A stretch of DNA of 64,000 nucleotides. It comes from Bilabrum cf. latius (lineage: Eukaryota). Location: contig OZ237754.1 of assembly GCA_965178125.1 (NCBI GenBank), forward strand, positions 372,001 to 436,000, written 5' to 3'. A model generated the notes under the pieces. That model did not search any database. It was given only the letters and a program-made list of their open reading frames with translations, and had not been told where the DNA came from. Position 1 is the first letter of the stretch, and every line of letters starts with the position of its first letter. The translations under genes were made by a program, and so were the position numbers. Shown piece by piece: positions 1-64,000 of this stretch.

Positions 1-2418
1 TCCAAGAGCCGAGGTGGGCGCACTGCTGGGCTGCAAGTACCGTTCGGACGGTCTGGTCGGATGGAGCTCAGGGGTCCTCTGCCACGATGGGTGGGCGCGC
101 CGCATCGTGCCGGACTCAACGATCTGCCGTGCGTGCTGTGGCTATCGGGTGCCAGGGTGGCTCCGATGATCATGCCGCTCGGTGCGCGGCCCGCAGCAGA
201 GGCGAGGAAAGCCACAAGTCTGATGGCGCTGCCTGCGAGACTCCCTGTCGACGATGGTCACAGGCTGCGGCGGGTCTATCCGGCACTCGAGTTTGACGTT
301 GTCAACACGGCCTCCAAGCCTGTCAAGCTGAGTGCACTGCAGCACCTGGCGGAGGCAGACCAGGCACTTGACTTGCATCGGCGCAGAGCCTACGGATATA
401 GGCTGTATCTGCCGCCCCGATTTGGCACTAGCATCGATCTGCCCCCTCGCAGCATTACCACGATCACAGCCATTACGGCTGATCCGAACTTCTACAGCAA
501 GTGCATGATGGCGCGTGTGTCATTGCATTGGCGAGATCCCTCAGGGGACGAGATGGACGCCCTGTACAGCGGGCCCAGGAAGAAATGGTTCCCGCACGAT
601 CCTCCTGGCCTCCCAAAGCCGGGATCATCGCGAGCGGAGCCGTTCAGGAGAGTAGCCACGCTGCCGCCGCCCCCACCAGAGGCCTAGCCCTGGGCCACGA
701 GCACGGCGGGTCGACGAACTGCCCAGTGGGCGCGCGACTCGGAGAACGCGCTGGCGACAGGGACCCCTGCCAGCCTTGACCCCACCTCTGGGGTTCGAGA
801 GGCCGCCAGCGCACCCGGCAGTAGCGGTGATTGGGGTGCTCCCCGGTTCACGAACGGCAGGGCGACGGGTCGCACGCATGAACCGGTCGGCCTTCGTGTG
901 ACTGCCAAGGACAGGTCGGCAGCATACCGGCCTCGCATGTCCGCAGCCGAGAGAGAAGAAGCCGAAGAGGCTGCTCGTGCGCAGAAGAAGAGAGAGACGC
1001 AGCGGTTAGCACATCATGGGGATGGTGTCTTTGCAGCTGCGGCTGCGGCATCAAGGGGGGCATCCGACCGGATCCTGGCTCCAACGCCTTTCCAAGCGCC
1101 CTGGCAGTCCAGAAGCAAGCGAGCCTCCTCCATGCGAGCACGGTCTGCCGGCAGGTTACGAGCAGTGGACGCCACCTCGCAGTCGAGTCGGCATCGACCA
1201 GGCAGCCCGATCCGTGCTGTGCGTCAGTTTGGTTACGGCAGCACAGAGAGTGAAGAAGATGACCATGACATGGTGGCTGCCACGCAACGGCCGTTCTCAT
1301 AGACGCAGTCTGGGTCAGCCGCGCGAAACGCTCTCGTAGGCAGCGATGGAATCAGCAGTGGGGGCTCGGGCGAAGCATCGTCTGGGTCGAATCGTTCAAG
1401 GCCTCGGCCGCAGAGTGCGCGGATCAGGAGGGGCCGAGACCGGCATGCCTCCCATGCGCAGCCTGCGCAGTCACGTGGTCGACAGAGGCCGCAGTCTGCT
1501 GCGGTGGCACGGCGGCAGCGACACGATTTGCCCCCCACGGATGCAGCATGGGCTGCAGACGCTGGTGATGCTACCTTTGGAGGCCTGGTGGAAGAGGAGA
1601 GCGGCAGCTTGCCAGAAGTAGTCGGTGCCCATGAGTTGGGCAGTCACCAAGATGGCCGATTCGAGGAAGCCATGGCCATCGCGATCCTGGCAGGGAAGGG
1701 CAAGGACGGAGCGGGGGGCAGGCCACCGAGTGCTTCCACCAAGACAATCACCACGGCGGGGGGTGGAAGGCACCGCGGGCGCACACCAGCCGCAAGTCCG
1801 ATGGTGCCGCCATCAACAGCCGCTCAAAGACGTCGCCCCTAGTCTGCCCGAGTGCGATCTCGCCGCCTGGTGGATTCGCACGAGTCCAACGCTGCGGGCA
1901 GAGATGCAGGGAACGAGTTCACAGCACGAGGTGGTTATCCAACCAGCAGAGGGGCTAGATCTAGTGGCCGTCGTCCAAGGAGCAGCATGTCTGGCCCGTC
2001 GCATCACAGCGAGCACGCTGGGTCGGGCTTGCCCAGCGTGCATGAGGCTGGCTTTGAGCCTGAGGGTGGTACAGCTGCTCCTCGCGCTCCTTCGTCTGGG
2101 TCTCGTGAACGTCGTCCTGACAGACCGCAGAGCGCGGTCACTAGGCTGGGCGGGCATAGAGACGCGCGCAGCACGTCGCCCCCTAATGCTTCAGCCAGTC
2201 GAAGAGGTAGCCCGCCAGGCAACAGACCTACAGGCTCTGGAAGCCGCCCGACATCGGCTGCTAGAAGTCGCCCGTGGTCTGCAGCGTCCTCAAGAACCGG
2301 CGCAGCATCTACTGCAGACGGTTATCGCTACGTGGCCGGCCTGTCTTCTGGCGCCGATGGGGGTGCAGCGCAGTGGCAGTCGCCGGCGAGTCCGCGTGGC
2401 GGTGGGCCTGGCACATGA
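1..2418 (+). CDS. Hypothetical protein, 3' part (starts left of the window); Ser/Arg-rich tail with repeated RPQSA-like motifs
   Basis: Frame 1 is open from base 1 to TGA 2416-2418 except for TAGs at 685, 1300 and 1840. ORF-track pieces 61-687, 898-1302, 1504-1842 and 1852-2418 share one frame. No domain recognised. Confidence 0.7.
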
Positions 2419-2535
2419 ACCGTGCTTCGGACCGCAGATTGGAGCATATGCTCTGGAGCATCCGTTGTTTGGATTATTATCCTTAATTTGTGTTGCAGGT
2501 GGAACAAAAATACCGAATGCAGTTATGAGTCGTAC

Positions 2536-5332
2536 TCATGCAACACTTCCTCGCCTATTCCGCCTCGGCCGCTACACCTCTGGATCAGCCCCGCTACCGC
2601 CCGTCACTACCCCACCATGTGGAGCTCCGACTGCCGGTGCACTCCCTGCGGCTGCTCGTGCTGCTGCTGTAGATCTCCTCCGCTGGCCAAAGGTACCCGT
2701 GGACGCCCGTCTGGTGCCCGGTCCGCCTTTGCCCGACGTGGAACCGCCAGTCGCCATCGCCTCCGCAAGCAGCTTTGCTCTCCGCACAGCGTCGATCGCT
2801 TGCGCATCGGTCGAAGCTCGTCGGCCGCGGACGTGAGGTGCCCTGGCAGCAGCAGCCGACGCCCGCCTGTGGCGCGCATACATCTTCCCCGTCTTGCTGA
2901 GATTGGACGTGAATTTCTTTGAAGCTTCGGAAAGCTGTCCAGACTGGCCGCTCCCGGCTGCCGCCCCCAACGCTCCTTGCCTCCTGCGTTCAACCGCCAA
3001 GTCCACGCTGGCCCTCCTCCGACCCCTGCCAGCAGCCCCCGTCGGCATGCCGCCGGTGCTACCCCGCCGATTGGTGCGCCTGTCTACCGCTTTCTTGGCG
3101 CTCTCAAGAGCCGATCCACTCTGGCCCTCCATGTCATAGAGCACGTTGCCAATTCGGGGACTGGCCGCATGCGGCGTGCCGCCGCCAGAACCAGACTTCT
3201 CCCGGTGGTCATCACCAACACCCTTGGCATCTCCTTCGACGGCACGAAGGAAGTTTCGAGTGGATTGATTGGCTCTCTGCCTCGCCTTCCTGATCTTCTG
3301 ACTCTCCGCGGCTGACAGCTGCCCTTGATCTCGCATGACCCGGCGCCGGTCTGCCAGTGTCATATTTTTATGTGCCTCGTATCCTTCCCCAGTCTCCCCG
3401 CGTCTCACCATCGATAGCACGTCTGGAGCACCCTTGGACTCGTTGTTGCCTATAGAGCCTAGTGCGGTAAACTCGCCGGCTGCATTGGTGTTTCCACCAC
3501 CGCTCGCACCAGACAGCGCCTCTGCAGTGCCAGGCAAGGCAGTTCCAGCGGGAAGTATACCTCGCTAGCTAGCGGAGGCGCCTTTGACCGCGGCTCGCTG
3601 GGCAGGTGTCAGGTGCTAAAAGTTTCCGTACGCACTCTCCTGCGTCTGGCTCGCCACAGCCATCGCATCCTGGTTTCCTGTAGAGATGCGCCGGCTGCTC
3701 TTCCTGGAGCGCAGACGGCCCAGCCTCCCACCCGTGGACCCAATGCTGCCCTGCGACTGGGCGTCGTCGTCTTTTCCAGGCAAAGAAGACGACTTCGCGC
3801 TGTCCTTGGCTCCCACACCAACCATAGAATCGTTGCCCTCTGCTGTGCCCGAAGCGGCCACGAATCGGCTGCTCTATCGCTGGATAGTGCTAATCACGGA
3901 CTTGAAATTGCCGTACTGCAGCGCGGTATTTTGCTGCGCTCGTTCCTGTCTCTGCTGTGTAGCTTGCTTCCAGAAGCCGACGCCACCCAGCCGCATCTGT
4001 AGCTGCCGCTGCATCGTGTACACTGGCCAGAGCATCGTGGGGTGCTTCTCTGCGTACTTGACGAAGTTGTTCTGGGTGATCAACCCCTCCCTGGCTTTTT
4101 GCTTGGATCCTGCGGCCTGCGTGTCCACAGATGTCGCCAGCAAGTCGATCTTAATGGTCTCTCGCTCGATCAGAGCGCGCTTCTCAGCAGACGCGCCATA
4201 CACTTCGTACAGGATCCTCTTCATTTCCTGCGGCTCGCGTGTGAGGGCGACGAGAAACGAGGACGAGAAACAAGCGTTGGGTTAAAAGTTGCTCGCTGGA
4301 AGTGCGGCGCGGTTGTGGTGCAGCCAGTGCTTGATCCGCCAAGAGAGCATACAGGAGATTTGGGTAGAAGTCGTGAGCCGCTGCCTGTTGCTGCAGCTTG
4401 TCACATGAAATGGCTCGGCTCCTCCTCACCAGTGTGCTGATGCTGCCCGACTAGTCGAGGTCGTAGAGATCGAAAGCAAACAGGATCAATGACTTGCGCT
4501 CCAGCGTGCAGTAGGTCCAGGTTGAGAGGCAAAACTCAGGGAACGACAGGGTGCCTGCGTGAGGGGGCGGGTAGAGCGAGAGCAATCGGGAGGAGGGCGG
4601 TCACTGGCGTACCGTGTCTTGCCACTGTGATGCGGTCGCTGCCATGCAGGTATGGTGGCGGATTACGCAGACTCACCAGATGAGTCTACATCTGCGAATA
4701 GAAAGATGTAGGGTTTGACACACGAAGCTGGGTATAGGACATGAACGAGAAAGATGCGAACCTAGCATGCACAGCGTGCGCGGGCCTCAGCACTTACCAA
4801 AGATCTGCAAGGTGAAATGAGACACGGTTTGGCAAGTAGTGTGCTGCTAGAAAAACGCTGTACGCCATGAAATTGCTGCAGATAGTGTCGCCTCACCTCG
4901 AAAGCTCGCTTAGTGAAAATAGAACTTTCCAATCCACAGTATACCACAAACTGCGATGGTTGACTCGTAGCGGGGTGCTGTTAAATGCAAAGGAGAAACG
5001 CGCGCTATTCGATGTGCAGCAGATGTCTTACTTCTGTTATTGTAACAAAGCCGTTGCTATCATCGTCAACTGCGCGGTGGCGCCGGTAAGCCTGGAGGAC
5101 AGATACTCTTCCTATCGGTGAATCCTAACGATTGAAGCAATGCAGATCTCTCACTCTAAGAAAAAACCTTCCATAGAATCTTTAGCTGCCACAGTGTCAT
5201 AGGAAGCGTGCGAAAAATGGGGATACTGTCTGGTCGTTGGAGCTCCTCCTCGAGACCTAGCGGGATCACTGGATCGCACCCGCACAAACTACATCTACAA
5301 CAATCCTCAAAGGACGAGCTTGCACATCCCAT
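2536..5332 (-). CDS. N-acylated (MGC...) EF-hand calcium-binding protein, calcineurin-B/NCS-like, with a long RRxS-rich C-terminal tail; 7 exons
   Basis: Exons 5155-5332, 5032-5069, 4897-4950, 4798-4804, 4677-4691, 4430-4554 and 2536-4227, all GT-AG and in phase. Splicing builds the EF loops DDDSNGFVTITE, DVDSSGTLSFPE and DLD*SGSISTLE (*=TAG 4451). Ends at TGA 2536-2538. Confidence 0.85.
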
Positions 5333-5458: not shown

Positions 5459-7957
5459 ATGCACCATAATGTGAAGAAGTTCGCCACTGTTGATAAATAC
5501 CGCGGCGTTTAGGTCGTACCAGGCGAGGGCATCAGCCAAGGTTCCTTAGTACTGCGGGATGTGGCTGTGTCGAAGGTGCCTCTTCACAGAACAAGCACCT
5601 GCTGGGCCACACTTGACAGGCCAGGCGTCGATAGGCTTGACCGTTGCTCAAAATGTAAAGTTACCCACTACTGCGATCGCAAGGCGCAGGTCTTGGATTG
5701 GTAGCAGCACAAGCATGAGTGCAAGACGTTGGCTCGGTTCGGATTAGAAAAAGTCAAAGCTATGCCCTCTCTCGCAATGTTGCTTGCGAGAGCGATGATG
5801 CAGGGCTAGAAGCATATAGATCCTGACAGTTCATCCCTCCACGAAGGGCTGTGGTGCGATATTTCGCGGCTCACTCGAAACCAGTTGAGGCACGTTCACC
5901 GCGTAGCAGTGGCAGCCATGGCAATTCATAGTGGTTTCCAACACGCTGGCGCACGGTGCGGTAAAACTAATCCACCCGATACGGCTGCTTACACGCGCAT
6001 GGCGCTTGCCCTTCAATGGAACATCCACACGATTCTAGACGCCGACAGGGTACCCGTGGCGGTGGGCCTCTTTGAGCTCGGCTCGCTGTTCAATCACTCG
6101 TGCTCACCCAACGCGCTCACCGCATTCAAAGGAACGGAACTGCGCGTGGTTGCCTCAGAAAGCATCCAATTGCCCTGTGAAGGGCCGGTGGCTGGAAGCA
6201 CGCGCAGCAAAGCGGTGCCACAAGGATCAGCCCTCCCACAAGAAGGCACTGCCAGTGGCGTGGCAGGGACGGCCACTGGCAGCTGTGATGGGCAAGCAGA
6301 CGAGGGTAGATCGCCGATAGCTGAGGATGGGTGCATCACCGAGGTCTGCATAGGGTACATCGACACGGTACGCCCGGCCTCATGGAGAAGAAGGGCGCTA
6401 CGAGCAGCATACGGATTCGAGTGCAACTGCGCTGAGTGCCGAGGTGCCTGCGCGGCGTGGGATCAGCTGGCCAGACTGCGGCGCTGCTAGGAGTAGGAGG
6501 GCCTACCCAGAGAAGCGGCTGTCCAGACGGACCCAGTAGGTGTCAAATTGCCGGGCGCATCGGCTGAGCCTGCACTAGTGGAGGAGGCAGCGGCTGGCGA
6601 ACCAGACCTCGAGCACTTGAGTCTACCGGACAGTAACTATGGGATTGAAAGCGACAGGGCCACAGCAGTGGGATCCGTTGAAAGCATTGCTGGAGCAAAT
6701 CGACTTCTGAAGAGATCAGCCGCACATCTCTCGAAGGCAAGCATAACCTATCTCCGCAGAGAAGCCGCACTGGGCGGTGTGCTGTGCCCTCACTGCCGGC
6801 GAGAGCACGACACGGTGCTACCCGTCCGACGACCGAAGGCATCTGGTGGTGCTGACGCCGAACGACCTAGCCTTAAGCAAAGCATAGATGCACTGGTGGA
6901 CAAGAGCTTCTTAGAAAAAGCCTCTTCGAGCATGAAGCAACAGGTTGGAGACGCTACGCTGCCCCCGCTATGCATCCAGCCGATCCGGTTGCCCGGGGAA
7001 CAAATCACTTCTCTCGCTAGAGATTTGAGCTCTCCAGACTTGGATGGTGCTGCTACAAGTATTGGGTCAATACGCGCAGCTGCATCCGCGAGCAGTATTG
7101 ATCAAGCGGCAGCGCCCGCCTCTGTGCCCTCGTCCAGTGCTAGGTCAGCAAGCTCGACTTCTCGCAGCGGGGACTTTTCGTGGATTGACGATTGGCAGCA
7201 GGATGGTGGGCGATCAGGCACGCATCCACAGGACACCGTGTGCCTGCGATGTTGGCAGTCCCCGTTCAGCTCTACCAATGCAGAGCTTGCTGCAGTGTAC
7301 GACGAGACGGACCCTGCATCTGGCGGGCCAGCCGAGGCAACGGTGGCCTGGATGGCCGCACGGCTTGCTGAAGCGGATCGTCTGGCAGCACATGCAAGAG
7401 AATGCACGGATATGGCAGCAGACCCCCCGCGCCGACATGGAGTCACCGTGTCGGAACATGCAAGTGGCCGCGATGAACCTAGGCCCAGAACTACAGTGGC
7501 AACAGAGGCATTCGCCGCTTTGTGCAGGTGTATCGCAATCCGGAAGCAGCTGCTGTCGCCAGCCCACCACCTGACCACTGCAGCGATCAGGGCACTTGGC
7601 GAATGCTGCATCGCGGAAAGGCAGTGGGGCAGCGCTCTCAGGTGCTACACGCACGTGTGGGCTGTCAGAGAGACCGCATCACCCTCTCTTTCTTGCACAA
7701 GCAGCCACACCGCCCTCGACCAGGGCATGGATGCTCTCCGGTGTGCTAAATTGTGCGATGCCGCGGGCCGGGCCCCGTCTGAGGCCGCGCGCTGGGCCAG
7801 GCGGGCCCTTGCACGGCTGTGTGCCTTCGAGACGTCTGCTGTGGACCGGTCCATTCTGGACGCGGCCAGGCGCATCGTTCGGTTTGCGGCCGTGGCCGAT
7901 GCAGGGGCACGAGATTTCTCAGGAGCAGCCGGGGGGCTTGCGGACGAGCTGGACTGA
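5459..7957 (+). CDS. SET and MYND domain (SMYD-family) lysine methyltransferase
   Basis: MYND-like CSKCKVTHYC...DW*QHKHEC, SET motif FNHSCSPN, EVCIGYID, post-SET YGFECNCAEC, and a helical TPR-like C-terminus. One frame from ATG 5459 to TGA 7957, with in-frame TAGs at 5510, 5702, 5807, 6488 and 6494. Confidence 0.85.
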
Positions 7958-10097: not shown

Positions 10098-13000
10098 TCA
10101 GCCGAGATCCAGCCCTAGGCCAGACCCCCCGCCGAGAGAGTCGTCCCCTGCAGCGTGCGCTGCTCCATTCACGCCAAGCACGTCAGCACCGGGCAGGCCC
10201 ACCGCTCCGGGGAGCAGGGCGCTCCTCATCAGCGCGCCTCCCAGCTCCACCATTCGATCTCCGCCGGAACCCGAACTGGCGCCGGCCCCAGTGCCAGCAC
10301 CTTGAACCCCCTGGCCGCCGCCTCCCTCCACTAGCTCCTTGGTGAGGCTGCTCACGCCTAGCAGACCACCGTCCTGCCCCTCGCCCGAATGGCCAAGGAA
10401 ACCACCGCCCATGCCGCCCCACAGGTCAGACCCAGAGAGCCCAGCCGACTGGGCGCCGTGGTATTGTTCCCCAGTGCTTCCCATAGGGGCGCCGTGGTAT
10501 TCTTCCCCAGTGCTCCCCATAGCAGGTTCCTGCAGACCGGACTGCCCCCCGCGCAGCTCCCACCCGCCACTGCCCGCCTCCCCCGACGCAGCCGAGGCAA
10601 GCGGAGACAGGCCTGGCGGTGCCTCCATCCTCCCAGAGGCACGAACCCCCCCCGGTGCGCCAGTGCCGCCCTCTGAACCTGAACCGCCTTGCGATCCTGC
10701 GAGCTGGTGCAAGCCATGCCCCTGGGACCACCCACCCGCAACCGCGCCCGAGCTGGAGTAGCTGCCGGTCGCCAGCACGGACGCAGAGGCCGGAAGGGGT
10801 CCAGCTGTCGAGCCCAGCAGCCAGCTCGGTGCAGGTAATTGCGGCACATGCGGTTGCCCAGAGACAGCGCCAGCCTGCGACTACGGCTGGGGCCCGGCAA
10901 AGCTGTGGACAGCACCGCTCGCAGCACCATGCTGCCTCCCGCCGCCAGCACCATGCACATGTACTGGCTCGGGAGCGGGGGGCACGCCCTTCCTCCCTGT
11001 AGACAACAAGTCCCCAGCGCTCTCGCTCCGCACACCTCCAGCCCCAGCCGCGTGATGCCCCCCCGGCCCTGAGACCAGGCCATGTCCACTGCCTGCATAC
11101 CCGCTGCTCTGGTGTGCCAGGGTGTGCAGGGACTGCACGCTCGTGCTACCAGAGCCACCCACCCCCCTGCCGTGCTGCTGGTACTGCTGCTAATAATACT
11201 GGGGATGGTACTGGGGGTGGTGCGCGTCAAATGACACGCGATGAACGTCGCCGTGCTGGCCACCCGGGCCTGGCTGCGCAAGCTGGTGATAGCTGCCCAC
11301 CGAGTGGATGGGCTGATGGCCGGGAGACTGGGCAGCGGCGGCGCTGAGCGACACCATCGAGGCGGGCCTAGCGGAGATGCCGGGGCCAAAGCTCGGGCTG
11401 CCGTGCACCACCATGCCCTGCATCTGAGCGGCACCATGGCCGTAGCCCATGGCCACAGGCTGAGACTGCTGCCCCATGCCGTCCGTGGACGCTGGTCCGA
11501 TGTAGCTGACGGCGGGAGGTGCAAGCACGAAGGACCCGTGACTGGCCACGGACCCGATTCGCCGCATGCCGCCCCCACCCTGGATCCCAAGCCCGTTGGT
11601 GCCCGTCGAGTCGGCGTCGGCGCCCCCTCTGGAAGTGCCCCTCCTTGACCTGCCCCTGCCCCTGCCGCTGCCGCTGCCGCTCTTCCGAGGTGAGCTCCCA
11701 GGGCTATTGCCCGGTGTGCCCGACATCTGCGGGCTGCCCGTGGACCGCGGCCCGAACTCCCTGTTCCTCCTGCGCTTCCAGGCCTTGCTGGCGTGCTCCA
11801 CGTTCTGCTCGGTCGGCATGGGCCTGGAGGGCAGCTGGTACTGCCCCACGTGCTCGAAGGGGCACTCCGGCCCGGCCCTGCAGCCGGTTCCAGACTCAAC
11901 GAACCAGAAGGGGCACAAAGGACGGTCAGAATCCTCGACCTCTTCTTTGCTGTCGCCCATTGGCTGCTCCCCGTCCTTGCCCTCGAGACCGTAGCCATGA
12001 TCTCGCCCATCGGTAGCGGGGTCAGCTCGTTCCGCAACATGCGCGTTCCCCGCTGTTCCCCGGTCCTGTGAGGCACCCACTCCGAGCGATTCCGAGTACC
12101 GAGCCAGCAGCAGCTGGTCAGAAGTCTCCGGAGTGGTCTGTGCCCTGGGGCGATTCAGTACCCCCGCGGCAGCAGTGCTGCGGGCGACGGCACCACCACT
12201 GGCAGGGTGTCCATCTCTCACACCCTGGCCCTGGCTTGAAGGAGTGAATGGGGCCGCGTCAACGGAGAGGTAAGACTGCCTGCCCCGCGCGAGGCCACTG
12301 CCACTCCCGGTGCCTGTGCCTGCACCGGGGTGGGTTGGGCTTGAGCCGTGGACGGAAGCGGGGGCAGGGGCGGGTGCTCCTGCCAGCGACTGCCTGTGCC
12401 CCGCACCAGATCCAGATCCAGATCCAGATCCAGATCCAGATCCAGGTATAGATCCAGGCCTCGGGGACTGCATGGTGCGACCATCTACTGAGCTTGTGCT
12501 GGCCGTGTCGCGCGCTGGACCGTCTCCATGCGTTGCGGCGTATGCACTGCCCATGTACCGAGCCATCCTCGCCCGGCCCTAGCTCTTCGGCGGCTGGGAC
12601 TGCGATCCAGCTCTGCCGTCGACAGAATAGCCCACGCTGCCCGAGGGTGGACCATGAGCCCTTGCCGTCTCGTGGCCCGCGCTGGGCTACCAGCTAACCC
12701 CAACGGAGCCAGTTCCCCCCTTTGGAGGAGCTGAGTGAGAGTGAGGGTGCTGCTGCTGCTGCTGCTGCAGCCATCCCTTAAACATGTCCCTCAGAGCGTC
12801 GATGTCGGACTGCTGGGTCAAGTGGTAATGGACACACCGCCCGTGCGGGGCTGAGCCTCCCAGGGAACAGTGGCCCGTCCACAGCTGATCCCTGCAGATG
12901 TGGTCGTCCGTGCACTTGGCGCCGTGCTTGCATGTCCCGGAAATGATCATGTTGCGGCAGGGGCTGCGGTGATGAAGGAAACTTGGTGTGAAGGCTAGCA

Positions 13001-38906: not shown

Positions 38907-39091
38907 TGAAAGCCGTGCGCTGTATACTTGGGCTTTCGAAGCCGCGGTGCGTGGGTTGCAAAAGTTGCGACCTGCAGCCTTGCCTGTGTCTTCAAGTTGC
39001 GACCGAGCACCCATTCGTTCGGAGCCATTAAAAAGTGCCGTTGAGCCAATATTTCGTCTTTGTCCGCTTAAACATCTGCTAGTGCAAAGCA

Positions 39092-46418: not shown

Positions 46419-46519
46419 CGACACGATCGCGGATGGATATATACTTGATAAGGTCTTATCCGTAATTTCACGTAGCACCGGCCGCGATTCGACCCAGTCC
46501 AGGTCACATTCACTCCGGA

Positions 46520-49858: not shown

Positions 49859-50179
49859 TGTAGCACGTAAGTTGTTGATACGGACTGGTTACGAGCTATC
49901 TGGCTATCGAACACGAATCAAGCCACAGTCAAGGCGCTCTCGACATACAAGTAGGTGGCAGCCAAAAAGTACGCTGCATCGATTCAGGCGGGAGCTCGTC
50001 GCAGAGTGAATTGTTGTCGCCTCTGCAAGCAGAATGTACGGAACCAAACACCGCGGCGCGGCGCCGCCGGCGATTTGGGTGGAAGTTTTGAGGCCTCCAC
50101 CAATCCACCAACCTGCAGACGCAGCGCCGGGTTTGCATGCCTTATCTCAAGCGAGCGTCTTTTCTAACCAATTAATTAA

Positions 50180-53100
50180 ATGAGTGTATATTGGACAAAA
50201 GCTGGTGGGCATTCACTGCTTGTCATGGTGCTTACTGGGTTGGTAGTACGCTTCACGTGTTTGGCAGAGACTGCTGTACCTGAACACGAGCGAGCGGTCA
50301 GCATGACCCTTCCAGCCTACTTGAGGCATCCAAGGACCTTAACAGCTGCATCAGGTAGTCCGGAGCCCTCAGCAACACCATCACCCTCAGCGGTGCCTTC
50401 ATCGCTTGTTGGCACTGGAGGCGCTACCGTCATTGCAGACGTGCAGCCAAGATCTGCCATGATCGAGGCAAGCGGTCGACTCTTCTTCCAGGGCCAAACC
50501 GAAGATTACGGGAGGGAGCTGTGGATGTCAGATGGCTACAGTGCCGTGCTTCTCTCAGACCTGAGGCCGGGAACTGACAGCTCGATCCCTTCTGACTTTA
50601 CAATCTATCGAGACAGGCTGTATTTCGGCGCCCGAGGTGTAGACTTCAAAAAACAACTTTATTCGATCGATCCCGCAGCAGCAGCCGAAGGGCGCAATAT
50701 GACCTTGCAGATGGTACCTCCGATCGGTGACGACTGGGACACCAGTCCCGAGTCCCTGTGCCAGTACAAGGGCCTGGGCCCAGACGCACTGTACTTCGGC
50801 GCAAACGGCGGGAATGACATAGGTCGCGAGCTGTACCGTTACACTGGCCAGGGCAAGCCCGAGCTCGTGGCTGACTTGCAGCCGGGGGAGCTGCAAGGCG
50901 GAGACCCACAGGAGCTCACAGTGTTCGACGGTCGCCTGTTTTATGCATCATCATCATTTTTCCAAGGCCTAGAGCTCTGGTGGTACAACGGTACAGGGGT
51001 GCCGCAGATGGTGCAGGACCTGCAGCCAGGGCCGGGGGGATCAGCGCCCCGATACATGGTCTCGACAGCGGTTGGTCTCTTCATGCGGGCTACCGTAAAT
51101 TAGAGGACCTCGTCACTGTTCGTGGTGAAGGCAGCAGGCACTGACCCGTCCCAACGACCCAACCAGCCTGAGTTGGTAATAGACCCCGCTCTAGAGATAT
51201 CAGATCCCCAGTGGATGACACTACTTGACAACGACACGCTGGCTATGGCTGCTACACCACGAAACGACGATGTAGGCCTGTTCATTATCGATCTGAAGAA
51301 CGCATCCTAGCCGTTATCCTTTGGGTCCAGCTTATTGTCTGATGCCTATGCACCACAGTTCCTTACCATGGGACCTGGTGGCACCCTGTATATGAGTGGC
51401 TACTCTGTCCAGATTGGCCGGGAGCTCTGGGGTTACAACCCAGCCAAGCAGTCATTCCTCTTCCTGGCTGTCGATCTCTACTACGGCACCGACGACTCCA
51501 ACCCGGCATTCCTGACATCTTTCATACCACCGAATGCCAGCGAGCCGCTGCTCTACTTTGGCACCAGCGATGGAGATGATGACTCGAAGCTCTGGTCCTA
51601 CAACGACACCGCCAGACCCACGCCCACGCCGTCAACATCAGCCACGCCCACGCCCAGCGCGTCAGCATCGCCGTCAGCCAGTGCGTCTCCAACGCCCTCC
51701 GTGTCGATTTCGTCATCCCCATCCAGTACTGCTAGCGCCACACCCACGCCATCCACCACCCCGTCGCCCTCCGCGTCGCCTAGTCAGTTTCCAGAGGGTG
51801 ATGGGGCGTCCATGGAGGCACAGCATGTACAGGTGGGCGTGGTGGGCTCGCTTCAGGTGTGGAGAGATCCGGCCACGGACCAGCTGCTGCCTCCCGACAT
51901 GGACCTGTAGACACTCAAGAGGGTACTGCCGGACGCGCTGGTGGAGGCATCTAGCCTGTACGCGGTGCGAGGACTACCAAGTGCGGAGACAGGTGCGTCA
52001 TGGGTGGATCGGCTCAGGGTGGTGGGCGCCCGGACTGACGAGTCCAATGTGCGTCGCACCAACGTGCTGGTGCTTGTGCAGCCACCGGCTATGGAGCCAA
52101 CACTTGATGAATCTACCCAGCCGGCCACTTCAGTGCTGTCAGCCTCGCAGACCGCCGCATTGGTGGACCAGCGGCTCATCGCCAAGGCCCAGCAGCAGGG
52201 TGCCACTGTGCTCAACACGACCGTGGGGCTGCCGCTGATCCTCACGCTGGGCGCGCCGGCTGCCGAGCTGTGTCGGTGCTTCGAGGGGGCATGGACGGTG
52301 GATCTGGCAGGTGAGTCGTGCCCCAGGGTACGTGTGGACACCAGCGTCATGACGATTGCCATGATATCTTGCGCGATCATTATTCCGTTCTGTGGGCTGG
52401 GTCTGTTTCAGCGTGACCTTGCATCACCAAGCGGCATCTTCACTGTTGTCAGCGTGGGGCTGCAGGTGTTGGACGTGGTCAGTGACGCAAGCTTCACCTA
52501 CCAGCTGGTTCGGGAGCGGAGCTGTGAGATGCCTGGGCTAGTCATCATTGCTGTAGCCTCCATTGGTGTATCCATGCTGGTGAACTTCGCAGTGTCTATG
52601 GTGCTCCTGCGCTGCTGGCCAGTGGACGGGCTGCGGCAGCATGCGGGCCAGCACTGGGGCATGGTGTACGGTGTGTCGTTCTTGTCGATCTTCGGGCCCA
52701 AGTCGCTGGACCTGCTCACGAGCCGGCTGGGCCGAAGCGCCGCCTTGAGTCTGTACGCGTCGGACTCGGCTAGCGACATGGCTCGTCGGCGGGAGCTGTC
52801 TCACCGCCTCAGGCTGCTGGGCATCCCTCAGGTGGTGCTAGAGGACTTGGTGCAGTTTGGGCTGCAGGTCTTCGTGCTATATCAGGGCGGGCGAGGAGGC
52901 GGAAGCAATCTGGCAGCGCTGGTGGCACTGATATTCACGGGACTGAACGTGATGCGGCATGTGTTGGGTGCGATGCTGAGCTCAGTGGGACTGGAGGAAA
53001 TCAAGCAGAAGTCACACGGTCGTGCCGTGGATGTATCTAGACGTGCAGAGCCCGCATTGCATGCCAGAAGACTACAACCGAGCGTGTCAGCCTTGATTTT

Positions 53101-53425
53101 TTCTGGATCGCATTGGATGTCGCCTGGTGGAGCTGGTCAGGGCCCGGTTGCTCTTCCTGTAGACTCGGAGGGCGAATCGAAGCGCACCAGTACAGTCTGT
53201 CCAGTACAAGCAAGCAGTCCCAGTGCCACTAGTGCAGGTAGTGCCGCCTCCAGAGCAACACTTAATCCGCTTCGTGGAGCCGAGGACGGGCAAGTGGCAT
53301 CATGGATGCAGGAGATGGAGGAGAGCAGGATGCCTAAAGGGAGCGGCCCCGATCCAGACTCGTTGCTTGAGCCGAGCCCGACCAGTGACTAGGTGAGTGA
53401 GAAACACGGTGTGGAGGCTCTTTGA
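50180..53425 (+). CDS. ELWxxDGT-repeat cell-surface multi-pass membrane protein; copy B (inverted paralog of copy A)
   Basis: Same architecture as copy A, with a hydrophobic signal peptide. In-frame TAGs at 51101, 51308, 51908 and 53390; TGA at 53423-53425. The C-terminus HGVEAL matches HEVE*L in copy A. Confidence 0.82.
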
Positions 53426-54396: not shown

Positions 54397-57300
54397 TCAC
54401 ACGAACCCGCTCGCGCCCCCGCGGCTAGGCCGCCTCGTGCCCCTCGGCGTGAAGCCCTTCCGCTCATCCTCAGCCGACACACCCAGAGATGCACCTGCTG
54501 GCGCCACGACCTCCTCTGAGGAACCACCGGCAGGCCCGCCCACCAGCTTGCGGGCCTGCGTGGCCGCGCGGTCGCCCATGGGGTTGGCGAATGCGAACTT
54601 GCTCGGGCCGCTGGAAGGAGGCAGGGGCTTGGACCCGGCCAGGGCCGGCTTCCCGCCCTTGCCTGAAGACCCCCCGCTCTGCAGGCCAGCCAAGGGCCCT
54701 TGCGTCACGCGGTAGCCGGCGCCTGACCGCCTGGTGGACGACATGTAGTACGCCAGACCCACTCCTGCGGCCACCACCACCAGCGCGCCCACCACCACGC
54801 CCACGATCAGCCCCGTGCTGGCCCCGCCAGGAGCAGCACCATCGCCGGGCAGCTCCTCGCCCATCACGTCCTCCACGGACCCGAAGCACACGGTGCCCAG
54901 CAGCATTGACTCTCCGTCAGACGCGATCGTCATGCCGCTCTGCATGTCCAGGCCAGTCACACCGTCCATGTCGCCGGCGAGCACCACAAGGCTGGCGCGC
55001 CTCCGGTCCGCTGTGGCATCGCCCTCCGGCATGGGGGCATCCTCGGCTCGTAGTGGGATTACCGCGCTGGCCTGCGCCTCTCCCGCAGCGAACTGCACCG
55101 TTACTGTGCTCGACACCCCGCCTGCGTTGTAGTCCGCCCCCTCCTACGCGGCGCTCGCGATGCCCTCTCCGGGTGACACCACAGTCACAGTAAGCTCCGC
55201 GGGGCCGGCAGACGCCGATTCCGTCCTGGTCAGCACCACTGTGGCCTGCTCGGCCCCGAAGTAGTTGCACTCACCGTCCACGTCAACGCTCTCAACCTGC
55301 GCGATGTCGTCGTCTACGATCCGAAGCACCGCCTCCGACTGGAGACCGAAGTCGTTCTCACCTGCGATGCGCGCCCCGCCAGTGGCAGCCGACAGCCGCA
55401 GGCCCACTGCTTCGGTACGCACAGCGCCCGCCCTGCTAAGCTCGGCGATGGCATCCTGGATGGAACTAATAGACACGGTCTTCGAGTCCTCGCCGCGCCC
55501 GAACGATAGCTCGCCCGATGCGGCAACGAAGTCGCCGGAGCTCGCGGGCATGGACCCATCCTCCAAAGCGTTCTGCAGCACGTATGCTTCGTACCGCACA
55601 GTCACTGGGTCATCTCCGAAAGTGCCCAGCTCTCGGCGGACCTCCAGGTTGGCGCTGCCGCCCTCGCCCACTTCGTACCCAGCCTCTGACCAGCTAAACA
55701 CTCCACGACCGAACGAGATGCGTCCGCCCGTCGTGATCTGCTCGCCAAGCTCGCCCTCGCCCGTGGCGGCAGCCTCGATGGCTGCAATTTCTTCCTCGGC
55801 GGTGCGCTCCACATCCGTCGCATTCTCGGACACAGGGGCCGCAGGCTCGGCGGGAGGCACAACTTCCATGGCCTGGATGCCCACACCCAGCGTGTCCTGC
55901 AGAGAGCCAGACAGTGCCTCCTCCACCAGCCGCTCCTGGGCTGCCACCAGCTCCTCATACTGGGCGTGCCTCACCTCGAATTCCGCCTCCTCCTCTGGAT
56001 CCACACCGTCCACGTCGCCCTCGCCCTCGCCCTCGCCCTCTGTCTCCACCTCGTCGTCCTCCAGAGCATCGATTTCGAAGTCCACGCGGGCCGATCCTGC
56101 CACCACATTGACCACCCGGATGCGGTTTGACGCGATGTTCAGCACGAACGCCAGCCGGCCCATGAACTCGTCCTGCTGGTCGTAGAACGTGTCGATGTTG
56201 AGCGCCAGCGTCAGCGACACCTGGATCAGCGGCACGGTCCGGATCTCCACGTACCCCTTGCCCTTCACGTTGAAGTGGATCGTGCGGGCCAACCGGAAGT
56301 ACGCGTTAGCGCCGTCGTCGGACGAAGGCGAGATGAAGTCGTCCGTGCCGTCGTACACGTCCCCGGGCCAGTTGGTGTCGTTCACGAACACCATCGCGTC
56401 TCCGCGTCCGGTCACCTGATCGCCGGACTTGTACACGCGCAGCTTGTTCGGGTTGGCCCTCCAGTTGGCGATGGTCACGGCCTCGCTGTCGGCCGCGTGC
56501 AGCAGGTGCCAGCGCATCTTCTGCGGCACCGTGGACATGAAGTAGATGGTCAGGTGCTGCGGCACGGGCACGATGGAGTGGAACAGAGAGAGCCTCTTGA
56601 GGCAGGTGTACCCGGCGCACCAGCCGTGGTCCATTTGGGAGTTCATCTGGTTCAGGTATCCTCCACCCAGCGTGGCGTTGTTGCCGTCCTTGCCTAGAGC
56701 TTCCTCACGCAGCAGAGTCTCGGTGCCAGTCACGCCGCCCGTGCCGGTGGTGAGGACGTTCATGGGAGCGAGGCTCCTCGTCTCCGAATCGGGGTCCATG
56801 CTCTCCACCGCCAGCATTCGGTAGTTGAGAGTGGACCTGCAGCGGTAGGCCTGCCAATTGCGGTCCAGCTCGCATCCGTCAGTTCGTGCGATGCCGCGTC
56901 CGATGGCTAGATCGTCCTCGGCGATGCGCGTGCCGTCATGCCTGGTGATCATGGTGATTGGGATCCACCAGCGCGCGCGAGAGTTCCTGAACTCTGACTC
57001 GGAGAAGATGTTGTAGTAGATGGGCTCGGTGGCGGACGAGTCGCCGGTCTGCGCCAGACCGCTGAACGATCCGTCCAGGTCGTTGATGAGCACCTGCTGC
57101 AGACCCTCGCAGTCAAAGATGATGCAATCGGCTTCGTTGATCCACCCAGGGTTGGGTCGATCGATACGCAGGCGGTTTGCAACCGGCGTGGAGACCCACT
57201 TGATGCCTCGAGCGTGCGTCGGGTGCGTGACGTCGGGGCTGGCGGGGTTGGTGCGCACCGCGCGAGGCGTTACGGCACACTGCCCAGAGGAAAGAGCTCC

Positions 57301-60300
57301 GCTGGATGGCTGCTTCTGCCCGTAGTTGACAAACCGAACGTTGGTGATGATCGTCTTGCCGCTGATCTGACCGTAGCTACCCACCTCGTGTGGGGGTGAC
57401 ATGTCGAGCGACATCGGCCCGCCAGAGACGAACGACGGGATGAAAAGGCCCAGGCGAGATACACCCATCTGTCCCCGGCCCCAGGACCAGCGCCAGCGCT
57501 TGGTTGGCAGCGCTTCAGAGCAATCAGAGTCGGCCCCATAGCCCACAAAGATCGAGTTGCTGACCTCGACGTACTGGTCACCGATCAGGTGCCTTGCCGA
57601 GGCAAAGCCGAACACGAATGCGCCCACCGCCACACGCTCGTCCACACTGGTGTGGCTGGTGACCTTCACCTTGGCCCTGGACCAGGTCAGGAACCCGTAC
57701 TCGCTCGCCTTCCAGCTCTTCATGCCATGCACCTGCAGACAGCCGCCGATGCCGCGGGTCATTCGGATGTTAAAGTGAGAGCCGTGGGCCTCATTGCCGT
57801 CAAAGTAGCGGCGCCCGTCGGACATCACGCCGGCATTTCCGCAAGGCAGGCTGCTCAGGTAGAACCCGGACCTCTCGCTGCCGCCCGCCACGTTGTCTCG
57901 CACGATCGCGTTGGCACCCATGATCTCAAACCCACCGGGAGTGCGGGTGTCCTAAGCAAGGTTGTTGCCATGGTGCGTTCCAGGGAACACAGAGTTGATC
58001 GCGAGATTCTTGCGGATGCGGGTGCCCGGGGAGTCGGTGCGCACGGCCGCGCCCACCGACCTCTAGATCACATTGCTGTCAACATACACGTTCCTGCTCC
58101 CAGAAACGACCACACCCAGCTGGTAGAGGTTGTGCATGGAGCAGTTCAGAAGGCCGAAGCTGCCGCTCGCCGGCGGTGCAGCCGGGGCAGCGCTGCCGGG
58201 GGTCACGCCCAGGAAGGCCACGGCGGCGCCCTCTCCGTTGTTCTCCCCGAGAGCAAAGTGGCCGGCCTTGTGGAACTCCACGTTGCGGATCAGGGCTGAG
58301 CCCTGGTACGAGTCCGTGCACACGTCATTCTCCTCGTACGCGATCATCACGCGGGCGCCGAAGTGGTCCTGCTCCGTGTTGATGAAAGCAGTGTCGTCCT
58401 TGGGGTCCTTGAGGTCGGTCACGTCGGCGCCCTCGATCTTGATGTTGCGGGTGAGCAGACCAACCTCGGGGGCGGTCGTGATCTCTACGCCGTCGTACGT
58501 GGCTGTCGTCACCGTGTGCGCGTGCGTGAGGGCCGCAGACACGGTTACCTCCGTAGTTGTCACACCGCCAGTCGTGGAGGCGCTCGCGATGGCGGAGATC
58601 GTCCTGGTCTCGGCATCGCCAGGCTTGAAGGAGCTCGTAGATACGGAGATCTGGTCGCCCACGCGCCACCCACCGTCAGTGGCGTCGCCGTTGATCGTCA
58701 GCACAGTGTCTCCAGCATCCGCGGTGGCTGCCAGCTTGGTCCAAGGCAGCTGCACCTCGCGGCCCTCCATCTCGACCTGGCCTAGCACGGCCAGCGTGGA
58801 CGCGCCGATGATCGTGTGCCCGAAGCCCAGGTGGTCCGTCATGCGATCGCCGGCCAACTTGATGGTCGCGCGGCCCGGGTACGGGTCACCGCCGCCGTCG
58901 CCGCGGATGCGCAAGAGGCCCTCGTGCCTCACGACGATGCGCATGGCAGTCAGCACGATCTCGTCCTCGGGTTTGTCCTCCACGCTGTCGTGGGCGAAGC
59001 GCATGCGACCAAGTACGGAGAGCGTGCCCAGCTCCGGCGTCGACTCGTCCAGCTCCACGTTCAGGTGCCACGGAATCGTGACGTTCTCGCCAGCCTCCGT
59101 CGGCTTGCCGTCGTCGCGCTGCGCGATGTCGGTCCAGAAGGTCTCGCTGCTCCACTTGTACCAGGTGCTGGTGCGCGTCACTGTCCTCGAGGCCTGGCAC
59201 GGCGTCACGATCGGGCACCCGGTCTTGGGGCAGTCGAAGGAGCGGAAGCTGCCCTGCACAGTCTCGCGGTTGTTGTTGGTCTTATCCTGCTTGCTCAGGC
59301 TAAAAGTCACCCGGCGATCCACGTCATCGTAATAGTACGACCCCGGAGCATCCGTGCTAGTCGGCAGCTGCTGCAGCGCCGTTTCGAAGCCACGGATGTT
59401 GAAGTAGGCCGGATCCTGCATGTAGTCGATGTGCAGCAGGATCTGCTCATTCCGTCGGAACTCTCCCTGGTCATACGAGAAACGGTCGGGATCCACACGG
59501 GGTGTGTGCTCCCACTTGACACCGATCGAGGAGTCGGCGCCCACAGGGAGGGTCATCACCCACCCGCTTGGCTTGGTCTTGCGCTTGAGCTGCCACACAA
59601 CGGAATCTGTCGAGTCTCCCAGTGACAGGATCATTGGGACGTACCTGGCAATGCGCTCGGGGGCGGCATTGTTCACTGCAAACCTCCGGAAGCGCATGTT
59701 GTTACAGACCTTGCCCTGGAAGCCGGTGACGTCCTGGCAGTCGTCAAACTCTGGCAGCAGGCCGTTGTTCGGGACCAGGGAGCGGAAGTTGCGGAAGCTG
59801 CTGGGCGCGTTGGGCACCAGCGTACCATCCGTGTCCTCGTGCACACCCTCATGCTTCCACCGCCACATGACCCGGTTGGGGGTGTTGTCGTAGGCGATGC
59901 GGCGGAACCTGGTGGTCCATCCGCCACCGAGCGGCGTGAACCCCTCGCACTTGGAGCAGCCGCGCACGGCGTACGTGCTAGACTTGTTGTAGTTGGCGAA
60001 CGTGATCCGGTCGAACGTGAGGCCGTGGTCGGCGGCCGTGAAGATGCCGTGGCCCCTTGGCCCAGCCACCATCAGCACGTCTTGCACGGTGTTGGCGCCC
60101 CACTCGCCGCCTATGAACCCGCCCTGCGCGCCAGCCATCTCGAAGCCAGCCTGCAGGTTCTCCACTACCTGCATCTGCAGGAAGCGAAGGTGCGACTGAG
60201 CCGTTACAGTCACACCGTTCTTGCCGTTGCGGTACGACAGCAGACCCTTGAAGGTCCCAGTCCTGGCACGCGAGCTGGGATTGCAGGGCTCAACGCGTGG

Positions 60301-63300
60301 CGCCAGGAAGTGGTAGATGCGCAGGCCATAGTGGCTGTTGGAGTGCGCAACGTTGTTCTCGAACTTGCGCACGCGGGCGTGCCTGGGGCACACGCCGGTG
60401 CCCAGGCCCTCCGCTGCCATCACGCCGGTCACTGATGCCTCATCTTTGTACCAGAAGCCGTACCTAGCGCCTGATGCCACGTTGTTCACAAAGGTGTTGT
60501 CGGGATTGGTGATCCAGAAGGCGGCAGGCGTCTGGTCTACATTCAGGAGAGCGAAGCTGGGACCCACCTGGGTCACCAGCACGCCGTCCACGGTGTTGTC
60601 GGTTTCGCCACCATCTTCCACGAACACGGCGTGGCCCTTGACGTCATAGGCAACAGAGTCCTCGATCTTGAGATTCTTGACCCCGTGGATGGTGAAGGCG
60701 CGGTTGAACGTGCGATGCACAGCCACGCTGCGGATGTAGGAGCGGCTCACGCTGCCAACCATGTGGAAATGCAGCGGGTAGCGACCAAGGCGGAAAGCCT
60801 GCCCCACGCGGTACAGCTCGATGTCCTGGAACCTTCCCTGCACGGAGTTGTCCCCGCGGGAGTGCAGCATGATGTGGGCGCCGAACTGGTTCGGCAGGTC
60901 GCTGTCAACGGCACCCTGGAACTTCACCGTCCTCGTGAGCAGCGCCACCTCGGCTGCCATAGTGAAGCTATGGATCGCCTCCCGGGCTCCCGCGCGGTTG
61001 CTGTAGCCGCTGTCGGGCTCGTACGTCCTGTCCTCGGCGATGTGGGTCCACGATAGTGTCTCGTTCAGCCCGATGGTCTTCAGATTGCCAGAGATTGACG
61101 TGATCTTCCTGGGCTCGGCATGTGTAGGATCGTAGTCAGTGGAGGCGATCACGATCTCGTCGCCCACGCGCCAGTCCAGAGCCTGCTCGGCCAGGGTGAT
61201 GCTGTTGGCGCCAGCAGCGGCTGTAGCGGCCAAGCGAGTCCAGGGGCGGCGCACGGGCCGGCCATGCATGTCCAGCTCACCGTTCCGGACCGCAATCATC
61301 TTGGTGCCGTACACGGGTAGCTCAAGCTGCTTGACGTGCCCGTGCATGGTGATTGTCGCCTTGTTCGTGGTGTACGGGTCGTCTGAGGTACCGACCTTCA
61401 TCTTGCCACCGTTCACGATGATGTAGTGGGCGTCCAGGTTGATGTCACGGCTCGTGTCGAACTCCAGCTCGCCCTGAATCACAATGGCGAAGAGCTTCGG
61501 CGGGCTCACGTCCAGCACGACCTTTTGACCAGCTGGGATCTGCACCGAGTCGCCCTCCACCGGAGGATCAAGGCCGCCCCAGGTTGTCTTGAGGCTCCAC
61601 GCGTCCACGTACTCGTACGTCACGCGAGTGGACACGCTGAACGTGCCACACGTGTCGTGCTCCAGGGTAATCGCGCCGGGCTTGCCGTGCAGGGCCCCGC
61701 CGGCACGCTTGGTCACGCAGTTCAGAGCAGTGCCACCGCCACCGATGCTATCCAAGCGGCAAAAGTTGTTGAAGGTGCGGATGCGGTTCCCGTCACGGAT
61801 CTTGAGCTTGATGGACAGCTTGGTGGTGTCCGCCCCGAAGCCCTGACCGTTGATGACCAGTTGTGTGCCGCCCTTGGTGGAGCCACGGAGCTTGTTGATT
61901 GACGTGACGACGCGAGCTCCGCTGCAGGAGCCACCGCCGCCCAGCAGCGGCGGTAGGCCGAGCCCGAACAGGCGGCGACGCCCGCCCGCATTGTCGTAGT
62001 ACTGCGAGTTGGCCGAATCCATCGGCTGCACTTCGGCACCAACAGCCTCAGCTGACGTGCATCCGAAGACGTCCACGGTGTGAAGGCCCACGCGATCGTG
62101 GCTGCCGCTCTCCCTAGAGTTCCGGGTCACGATGCGGACAAAACGCCCAATCGGTGCCGAATCCAGCTTGGTGACCGGATCCACGGTGGACAGCAGGAAG
62201 TCCGAGGCGGCCTCACCGGACGTACTCTCGTGCCCAGTCACCCAGGCCGACCCGTCGCGAGAGACGTCGATCCTGTAGTACCCAGGCCTGGTGTCCCACC
62301 ACTGCACGCGCACGCGCGACACGGCCGCCTGCTGGTGCAGGTCAACGGTGAATACCTGCTGGTTGGAGGCACCCTGCGTGGAGCGAGAGCCAGACACCCA
62401 GCGGGTGTTGTCGTTGCCATCCAAGGCGCGGTGGGGCTGATGGTCAGGGTTGGACCACGAGGACGTGGCGGTGGCGGTGGCCGGCGTGCCGGGGCCGCTC
62501 AGGAGCTGACCGTTCCCGCATGTGCCGGGTGCAGCCGCCACTGGCACTGCCCTGGGCCTGTGGAGCACGACATCGCACACTCCCTGGGCGTCCACCGAGG
62601 GCAGGCGTGCGGTGGCCGACTCTTCAGAGGGCATCCTGTACTTGATGACTAGACGCGGCGCGACCTTGTCGCCCTTCATGCCGTCGCCGTCCGTGTCCAC
62701 GTTGGCAGCACCAGAGTAGAACACCCTGCGGGACTCCTGTGCCCTTCCCCGAGCCTCGGCGAGCGGGTCGTCATCCTGCCCCTCTTCGCCTTCCGATTCG
62801 CCCTGTGCGGCAGCGGCATTGGCGAGCGCGATCTCAGTGGCAAGCCCAGGGTAGTCCTCGGGTTCGAACCCCTCGAGATCCATGGGTTCAGAGCCGAGCA
62901 CTTCCTGGGCGCCCTGCAGCACGCTGAGCTCCTCGTCGGTCAGCTCGGCAGCGCGCAGCACGAACGGGAATGCCACGGTGGGCGCTGCATCGGCCTCGGT
63001 GCGTTCCGGCATCTGCTGGGCAACTGAGGGGCTCCAGGGCCAGGACTCGGAGCTGATATGCTTCTGCACCAGGTGCGCGATGTTGGGCGAGCGGTAGGAC
63101 TGCCCCTGGGCCTTGAAGCGGTCGAACATCCATGCCACGGGGCTGGCCCCAAAGTAGGCGGCGCTGCTGTTCATGGCGTCACTTATCGCGCCATTGCTCA
63201 GGTCGCAGACGTGACCCTGGGCGCACCCGGGGGTGCCAGTCAGCGTGCCAATCTCGAACTTAATGTCACCGTCAGCGCCGATGCCCTGCGAAGCGCTCAC

Positions 63301-64000
63301 CTCAATGTACGCCTCCGTGATGGTGGCACCACGCGGGATGTTGCCTGCCGGGGTGATTAGCACGTCAGAGTCCGCGCCGCCGGAGCGCATGGACTCGAGG
63401 GACTCTTCGTCGGCGGCGATAGCCGAGCGGAAAGTGAAGAGTGCGTTGCTGCCGTACTTCATGTCGATTGTCTCTCCCACCACCCGAAGCGGCTCGTTTG
63501 AAAGCCTAGGCGTCTCGACCATGTCTGCGTACTGCCCGCCCACGAGGGGCAGCTCCACCTCGACCTCCGTCTCTGGCATGCGAGCGGCATCGATGGTGGG
63601 CAGAAGTGCGCACACCACAGCCGTGCCCGAGTCGACCTCGCTGCGCAGGTTTTGGCTCACGTTGGCAGCAGCTTCGATGACAGACACCTCGTTGGACCGC
63701 ACAGGCTGGCACGGCACGCCGCACACGTCTAGAGTGAAGTCGTCCTCGTCATTGCCGTTGTAATTCGCGTCCTGGTTGGGGAGGCCCTCGCCGCGAACCC
63801 ACACGTGCACGCCACCGTACACGTCAGCCTGGAGGGCTACCTTCTGAACGGGCAGCACCTGGCCAGACACGACCACCTGCACTCCGGGCGCCACGGTTGC
63901 GACTCGGCCGCCGACCGCCACGTACAAGGCATGTCGGCCCACAGTTAGAGGAGGCACGGTGCAGGCGATGGCCTTGCCGTCCCCGCTGATGCTAGGAGAC
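54397..64000 (-). CDS. Fibrocystin-L/PKHD1L1-like giant type I membrane protein (IPT/TIG, F5/8C discoidin, two G8 domains, parallel beta-helix, Calx-beta, TM); starts right of the window
   Basis: G8 motifs WSLKTTWGG...PVEGDSVQIPAGQKVVLD and WSSETFW...NVTIPWHLNVELD; GQAFRLGRYPLHFH; AAFWITNPDN; MDHGWCAGYTCLKRLSLF; Calx-beta SGELSFGRGEDSKTVSI; TM LIVGVVVGALVVVAAGVGLAYYM. In frame across TAGs at 58063, 57952 and 55144; TGA at 54397. Confidence 0.88.

Follow-up and report, generated by a model that had tools for sequence, protein, structure and literature searches.

The window analysed here, a 64,000-nucleotide stretch of contig OZ237754.1 (positions 372,001 to 436,000 of the forward strand; assembly GCA_965178125.1, Bilabrum cf. 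latius), carries a series of long genes on both strands that are broken at TAG codons when translated with the standard genetic code. Its GC content is ~59% overall and varies between 52 and 65% along its length. The TAG codons stand in frame in nearly every gene, are kept in RNA-like contigs, occupy the same sites in relatives and exchange mainly with CAG, and we consider it very probable that the window belongs to the nuclear genome of a eukaryote, GC-rich and poor in introns, in which cytoplasmic UAG specifies an amino acid, most likely glutamine (Gln, Q), and neither UAA nor UGA is a sense codon. UAG would then act as a third Gln codon. The genes and open reading frames (ORFs) of the window are listed below with their in-frame TAGs; X5 and X8 are sequencing runs that are described further on.

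2539..4281, minus strand: read-through ORF with 4 in-frame TAGs.
4187..4600, minus strand: ORF containing FAFDLYDLD-TAG-SGSIS (TAG at 4451-4453), an EF-hand by eye; no Pfam match at E<=0.01.
5459..7954, plus strand: SMYD-like gene with a MYND finger and a split SET domain; 5 TAGs (including 5510, 5702 and 5807), ends with TGA.
10101..13394, minus strand: Q/G/S-rich ORF; 4 TAGs, ends with TGA.
13075..14343, minus strand: Q-rich ORF; 7 TAGs (6 past the first ATG), several of them adjoining Q runs.
14880..18809, minus strand: RG-repeat-rich ORF of 1310 amino acids (aa); 9 TAGs, ends with TGA.
22359..24032, plus strand: Harbinger-type DDE_Tnp_4 transposase ORF (Pfam PF13359, E 3.9e-9); 8 TAGs.
24285..27443, minus strand: ORF with 3 TAGs that holds a tandem repeat (25939-27082).
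28431..34100, minus strand: DENN and ankyrin gene; 22 TAGs, that at 28476-28478 in the last ankyrin repeat; intron 33827-33913 (87 nucleotides, nt) seen in X5 and X8.
34398..38903, plus strand: Armadillo-repeat (ARM) gene; 12 TAGs (11 past the first ATG), including 36744; 5' intron 34110-34322 seen in X8.
39032-43177 joined to 43290-46415, plus strand: two-exon gene; 16 TAGs, ends with TGA; 112-nt GT..AG intron seen in X5.
46523..49888, minus strand: protein with a PT linker and multiple transmembrane segments, paralogue A; 5 TAGs.
50180..53422, plus strand: paralogue B, 78% aa identity to A; 4 TAGs.
54400..63999, minus strand: large surface protein with G8, CEMIP beta-helix, F5/8-C, TIG and Calx-beta regions, open at the window end.

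Thirteen gene models, which begin at the first ATG and have two introns removed, comprise 16,280 codons; 95 of these are TAG and none is TAA or TGA. In the remaining two frames of this DNA, TAG occurs 302 times, TAA 114 times and TGA 658 times. The complete read-through ORFs (17,074 codons) give the same picture, with 102 TAG and again no TAA or TGA; the absence of in-frame TGA is to be set against 206 TGG codons in these ORFs. The standard code gives 1 stop-to-stop ORF of 1000 aa or more; with TAG as sense there are 10, and with either TAA or TGA as sense instead there is again 1. Matches to Pfam or the PDB run across TAG sites in the DENN/ankyrin, ARM, SMYD-like, DDE_Tnp_4 and G8 genes. TAG is thus an in-frame codon of conserved genes, with RNA-like support. 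These counts bear out the original prediction, made from the letters of the window, that TAG is read as sense here, and the TAG coordinates that it gave (4451, 5702, 36744 and 28476) are all exact. Four of the five domains in which it had placed TAGs, namely the MYND finger, the ARM repeat, the ankyrin repeat and the DDE transposase, are spanned by Pfam or PDB matches; the fifth, the EF loop, is a motif seen by eye, in an ORF for which Pfam returned nothing at the threshold given above. It had also stated that no frameshifts accompany the TAGs, and indeed the sole change of frame, between the adjacent long ORFs 39032-43471 and 43266-46415, coincides with the 112-nt GT..AG intron.

The same bases are found in independent assemblies. 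We compared four sequencing runs with positions 28000-47999 of the window, and the stretch 28431-38400 is present in runs of several studies, filed under four coded organism labels. One run, X1, yields a single DNA contig of 19,054 bases with 0 differences from the window; across the comparison no base difference is listed for 28000-47053, and every listed one lies at 47134 or further. Four genes of this stretch have 55 in-frame TAGs between them, and the contigs of run X5 span 51 (20/22 in the DENN gene and 12/12, 16/16 and 3/5 in the others). Contigs of X5 and X8 end at gene boundaries, their depth varies from gene to gene, and they contain spliced joints: 43177>43290 and 34109>34323 have GT..AG borders, and 33826>33914 has CT..AC, equivalent to GT..AG when read in the direction of the minus-strand DENN gene. 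Three GT..AG introns are thereby backed by spliced contigs (43178-43289, 112 nt; 34110-34322, 213 nt; 33827-33913, 87 nt). We treat X5 and X8 as RNA-like because of this splicing; neither is on record as RNA, and our guess at their nature draws on the joints, the contig ends and the depth. The prediction had named CAG in raw reads or mRNA at these sites as evidence against it; the spliced contigs of X5 and X8 keep TAG, with no base difference listed for 28000-47053. The TAGs are neither assembly errors nor products of RNA editing.

Two further joints, in 31714-31835 (120 nt skipped) and 33570-33767 (196 nt), have GT..AG borders on the plus strand within the minus-strand DENN gene; each comes from a single run, in which the shorter side of the joint measures 29-30 nt, and antisense transcription or noise in the assembly could account for them. 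Runs X1-X8, from four labels and four studies, have this sequence in common over ~17-19 kb, no differences being listed (X6 at a depth of ~3); its source may be a culture strain that several studies share, or a protist present through co-culture or contamination.

Gene termination appears to be mainly the task of TGA, which ends 11 of the 13 genes, with TAA ending the other two. UGA is not sense, as had been predicted: it is absent in frame and is nevertheless the terminal codon in those 11 genes. Among the gene models CAA/(CAA+CAG) is 0.249, and the A-ending codons of Gln, Glu and Lys make up 25-30% of their pairs, so that if TAA were used as CAA is, the probability of finding 0 TAA beside 95 TAG would be ~1.5e-12. 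Reading through TAA adds merely 1-144 codons to the long ORFs, and the TAAs gained in this way (1-5 per ORF) all fall in the short added flanks, as would be seen with untranslated sequence. TAA is not a sense codon, and it likely terminates. The claim that UAA stays a stop stands as far as its absence from reading frames goes; as a terminator TAA is seen in just 2 of 13 genes, each with a TGA nearby. In the ARM gene (38898-38909) the 3' end reads TAG TCG TAA TGA, with TGA immediately after TAA, and in the DENN gene (28419-28430) it reads TAA TTC ACT TGA, with TGA after two codons. Such double stops may be a back-up for leaky UAA termination, or may be due to chance (n=2).

Within the genes TAG behaves as a non-preferred synonymous codon that becomes scarcer under strong codon bias. 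The gene models contain 95 TAG, 500 CAG and 166 CAA codons, TAG thus making up ~12% of the Gln-type codons, and in 200-codon windows the TAG count correlates with AT content at third codon positions (rho 0.53, p 5.7e-7). The G8 gene, whose third-position GC content (GC3) of 0.82 is the strongest bias in the window, has 3 TAGs in 3200 codons (at 58063, 57952 and 55144), against 22 in the 1890 codons of the DENN gene.

The amino acid that TAG encodes was approached through homologues. A HMMER search with the DENN region returned 397 homologues at E<=0.001, some of them short fragments from other assemblies that are 63-94% identical, and two word-based searches for shorter proteins added further fragments for the DENN and ARM genes. 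These fragments appear to be products of standard-code gene callers in relatives that also carry in-frame stops. At the eight sites where a relative of 80-94% identity has a residue opposite a window TAG, that residue is Q at four (DENN 801, 1078, 1316 and 1474), E at DENN 1110, Y at DENN 263, H at DENN 277 and K at ARM 635. In the other direction, the window codon directly past the end of a relative's fragment is TAG for 6 of 11 fragments, CAG for 3, and CGT and GAG for one each; Q accounts for ~4% of residues. Two metagenome scans and one viral-contig scan found no DNA of such a relative. Among the paralogues of the window, the sole TAG in a conserved context (residue 577 of B) stands opposite CAG in A.

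Further comparisons also favour Gln. At site X1259 of the DENN protein Cafeteria has Q, and in a MAFFT alignment the column of 138 homologues contains V (32), Q (20), P (17) and T (17), with Q the residue most enriched over background (+1.86 bits). When substitution scores are summed over nine close sites, Q comes out on top under BLOSUM90, BLOSUM80, BLOSUM62 and PAM30, leading the next residue by 12-29 units across the four matrices (the BLOSUM90 sums are Q 36, H 12 and E 11). Neither Leu nor Ser is found opposite TAG at the nine scored sites, and both score negative. By eye, X783 of the ARM protein lies in an 'LLXLL' motif, near three 'LVQLL/LVQML' repeats of the same protein. The assignment to Gln made in the original prediction is accordingly supported, with Q as the commonest partner among ~12 informative sites and the top score over the nine that were scored, and the residue preference at TAG for which it had proposed looking in homologues is a preference for Q (4/8 close sites). 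Given that TAG is sense, we hold Gln to be its residue with high confidence.

Several observations weigh against UAG as a Gln codon, or against parts of that reading, and they bear on what else the TAGs could be. The amino-acid sample is small (~12 informative sites), and half of the eight close-relative sites have a residue other than Q; the TAG of the ankyrin repeat falls at the TPLH position, where most of the PDB repeats shown have His, and X1979 of the G8 protein stands opposite a Tyr of the first beta-helix module in a by-eye alignment. Neither the composition of TAG neighbours nor the correlation between TAG and amino-acid content across windows singled out Q. A UAG that is sense and encodes something else, be it Glu, Lys, His or Tyr, or else Leu (the rhizarian exLh) or Ser (Scotinosphaera), could draw on E, K, Y and H at those four sites, on the ankyrin His consensus and on the G8 Tyr, and it is nonetheless improbable: Q is the commonest residue in both directions (4/8 sites; CAG at 3 of the 5 fragment ends that lack a window TAG; one paralogue site) and leads under all four matrices, Leu and Ser are absent from the nine scored sites, and E, K, Y and H are each a single mutational step from TAG or CAG. 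The relatives, moreover, are known from protein fragments, and their terminators are assumed to be TAG. X5 was labelled 'probably DNA' by an automated classification, and the RNA status of both X5 and X8 is a guess. Even so, we give virtually no weight to the absence of any code change, with the TAGs arising from assembly error, pseudogene mutation or mRNA editing. We found no point in its support, the bases are identical in independent assemblies of four studies and TAG is retained in the spliced RNA-like contigs, the interruptions are limited to one of the three stop codons, and the relatives have the same in-frame positions.

Both genes that end with TAA have an in-frame TGA 0-2 codons on, leaving n=2 for TAA as a terminator, and the end of the ARM gene is compatible with TAG acting as a stop there. 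That same end, together with the end of paralogue A (...E-TAG-L-TGA), would fit an ambiguous UAG, sense within genes and a context-dependent stop near some 3' ends, as in Condylostoma, karyorelicts and Blastocrithidia. We think this unlikely, as paralogue B has GCT (Ala) opposite the penultimate TAG of A and the two C-termini are alike, which is consistent with read-through, and no gene of the window requires TAG as a terminator. Less likely still, and by a clear step, is the joint reassignment of UAG and UAA known from ciliates and diplomonads (table 6), with TGA as sole stop and TAA rare on account of the high GC content: the predominance of TGA at gene ends and the TGA that follows each of the two TAAs are what it would predict, and against it stand the complete absence of TAA beside 95 in-frame TAGs when a quarter or more of the Gln, Glu and Lys codons end in A (P 1.5e-12) and the confinement of TAAs to the short flanks gained by read-through.

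If UAG is a Gln codon, its decoding would need a tRNA-Gln(CUA), or a tRNA-Gln that strongly reads UAG, by analogy with other reassigned lineages, in which a tRNA-Gln(CUA) typically derives from a tRNA-Gln gene by a change of anticodon. On the same analogy, eRF1 would no longer have affinity for a G as third base of a stop codon and would still recognise UAA and UGA. Scans of the 64-kb window for tRNAs and with Rfam gave no match, and neither eRF1 nor any marker gene is among its genes.

Codes in which UAA and UAG both mean Gln (table 6 type) are found in Amoeboaphelidium protococcarum, hexamitin diplomonads, ulvophytes and many ciliates. They share with the window the use of a stop codon for Gln but also read TAA as sense, whereas no in-frame TAA occurs here. 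Amoeboaphelidium itself was ruled out as a match, with ~40% GC (PMC10608142, Table 1) versus 59% here and with TAA also sense (PMC6299283). Changes confined to UAG are described, in PMC5304391 and PMC11687900, as Gln in Iotanema, Protocruzia and some phyllopharyngeans, as Leu in one rhizarian and as Ser in Scotinosphaera. One close likeness is to Iotanema spirale (Fornicata), for which PMC5304391 reports that UAG alone is reassigned with Gln as the best fit, that in-frame UAA and UGA are absent and that a UAG terminator is not needed. Iotanema, however, is a metamonad and an anaerobe of the gecko gut that ends its genes mostly with UAA (104 UAA versus 15 UGA; same source), whereas the window is 59% GC, has TGA at the end of 11/13 genes and has stramenopiles as its named homologues; on account of that main stop, UAA, Iotanema was ruled out as a match.

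Protocruzia tuzeti and the phyllopharyngeans (Gln or Leu) resemble the window in that UAG has changed independently of UAA and at least one UAG is found in most genes (PMC11687900). The phyllopharyngeans sampled there have 27.4-53.6% GC and UAA as the main stop, as against 59% GC and TGA here, and compared with ciliates that have a UAG-only change the window offers long multi-gene DNA contigs and GT..AG introns. In the rhizarian exLh (UAG=Leu) and in Scotinosphaera (UAG=Ser) UAG alone is likewise reassigned and UAA and UGA are kept (PMC5304391, PMC11687900), and for exLh the former paper reports that UAG is rarest in highly expressed genes, to which the TAG-poor, strongly biased G8 gene is a parallel; unlike in these two organisms, no Leu or Ser stands opposite the window TAGs at the nine scored sites. 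Amoebophrya sp. ex Karlodinium veneficum shares the presence of in-frame stops in transcribed, unedited genes (PMC12005148) and was ruled out as AT-rich, with all three stops in frame and read contextually (same source). The ambiguous three-stop codes in general (Condylostoma, this Amoebophrya and Blastocrithidia) do not match, in-frame TGA and TAA both being 0.

A lead on the lineage comes from the DENN protein. Four of the 26 homologue clusters looked up carry an organism name, and all four are stramenopiles: Cafeteria roenbergensis (37% identity, the third-best match), a MAST-4 protein, Phytophthora capsici and Pythium oligandrum. The organism is probably a stramenopile, a lead from the sequence of one protein and not a placement, and an independent origin of its UAG=Gln code is plausible. 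The type of code is already known; the lineage looks new. The literature searched, with subscription journals and supplementary files outside its reach, contained no relevant report that stramenopiles or bicosoecids have altered their nuclear code, nor one of UAG=Gln since 2025. Unless it has been published, this would be a new instance of the UAG=Gln-only code, and since DNA and RNA-like data for the organism are public (2025) others may have noticed it. We put forward tentatively, and at rather less than even chances, that it is the first nuclear stop reassignment in stramenopiles: an independent UAG=Gln code in a GC-rich, TGA-dominant setting, common to environmental relatives of 63-94% identity that have TAG at the same sites.

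Cases in which UAG has been reassigned and UAA has not are few, and one more origin, in a GC-rich, TGA-dominant and probably stramenopile genome, would allow an independent test. The questions it touches are how eRF1 gives up UAG and yet retains UAA, and whether such a change requires codon capture driven by AT pressure; if this is indeed the first stramenopile case, its GC-rich, TGA-dominant setting would be the opposite of what AT-pressure codon capture supposes. On the practical side, standard-code annotation fragments most genes of the organism and its relatives, as seen in public protein fragments that end at TAG positions of the window, and table 15 should be used.

Some features of individual genes can be added. 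The plus-strand ORF at 1-2415 is open-ended, with 3 TAGs and a weak Urease_beta match in Pfam (31 bits, cut-off 25); it is arginine-rich and looks to be of low complexity, and it overlaps a long ORF in another frame (902-2833), so its gene model is uncertain. The ORF at 2539..4281 is probably a downstream exon of the gene that holds the EF-like ORF at 4187-4600. The SMYD-like gene is identified by Pfam zf-MYND and a match to PDB SMYD3 (E 5.5e-21); a word-based homologue search with its protein gave no match. Between 16000 and 24000 the GC content is ~52%, AT-richer than the rest of the window, and this region, which contains the Harbinger-type transposase ORF and, at 18.8-22.3 kb, nothing but short broken ORFs, may be a decayed mobile-element island. 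The tandem repeat at 25939-27082 comprises 6.6 copies of 174 bp with 99% matches, and encodes a 58-aa acidic/basic unit within the ORF at 24285-27443. The 5' exon of the ARM gene (34010-34109) overlaps the 5' end of the DENN ORF on the opposite strand. Once joined in frame, the two-exon gene at 39032..46415 has ~2,400 codons and a TPR_12 match near its C-terminus.

Paralogues A and B, for which a Pfam search gave no match, are arranged head-to-head and have diverged; their proteins consist of N-terminal repeat units of an 'ELW..DG' type, long PT/ST-rich linkers and a C-terminal part with multiple transmembrane segments. Matches in a language-model protein atlas bore out both family assignments, G8 and DENN, and yielded no taxonomy that could be used; the second G8 module had no match in the PDB. 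For the G8/CEMIP beta-helix part the top clusters of the atlas are bacterial, and the sole match from a scan of GTDB, a G8 homologue with 35% identity, is encoded in the metagenome-assembled genome of a gammaproteobacterium (L001 6212-7507).

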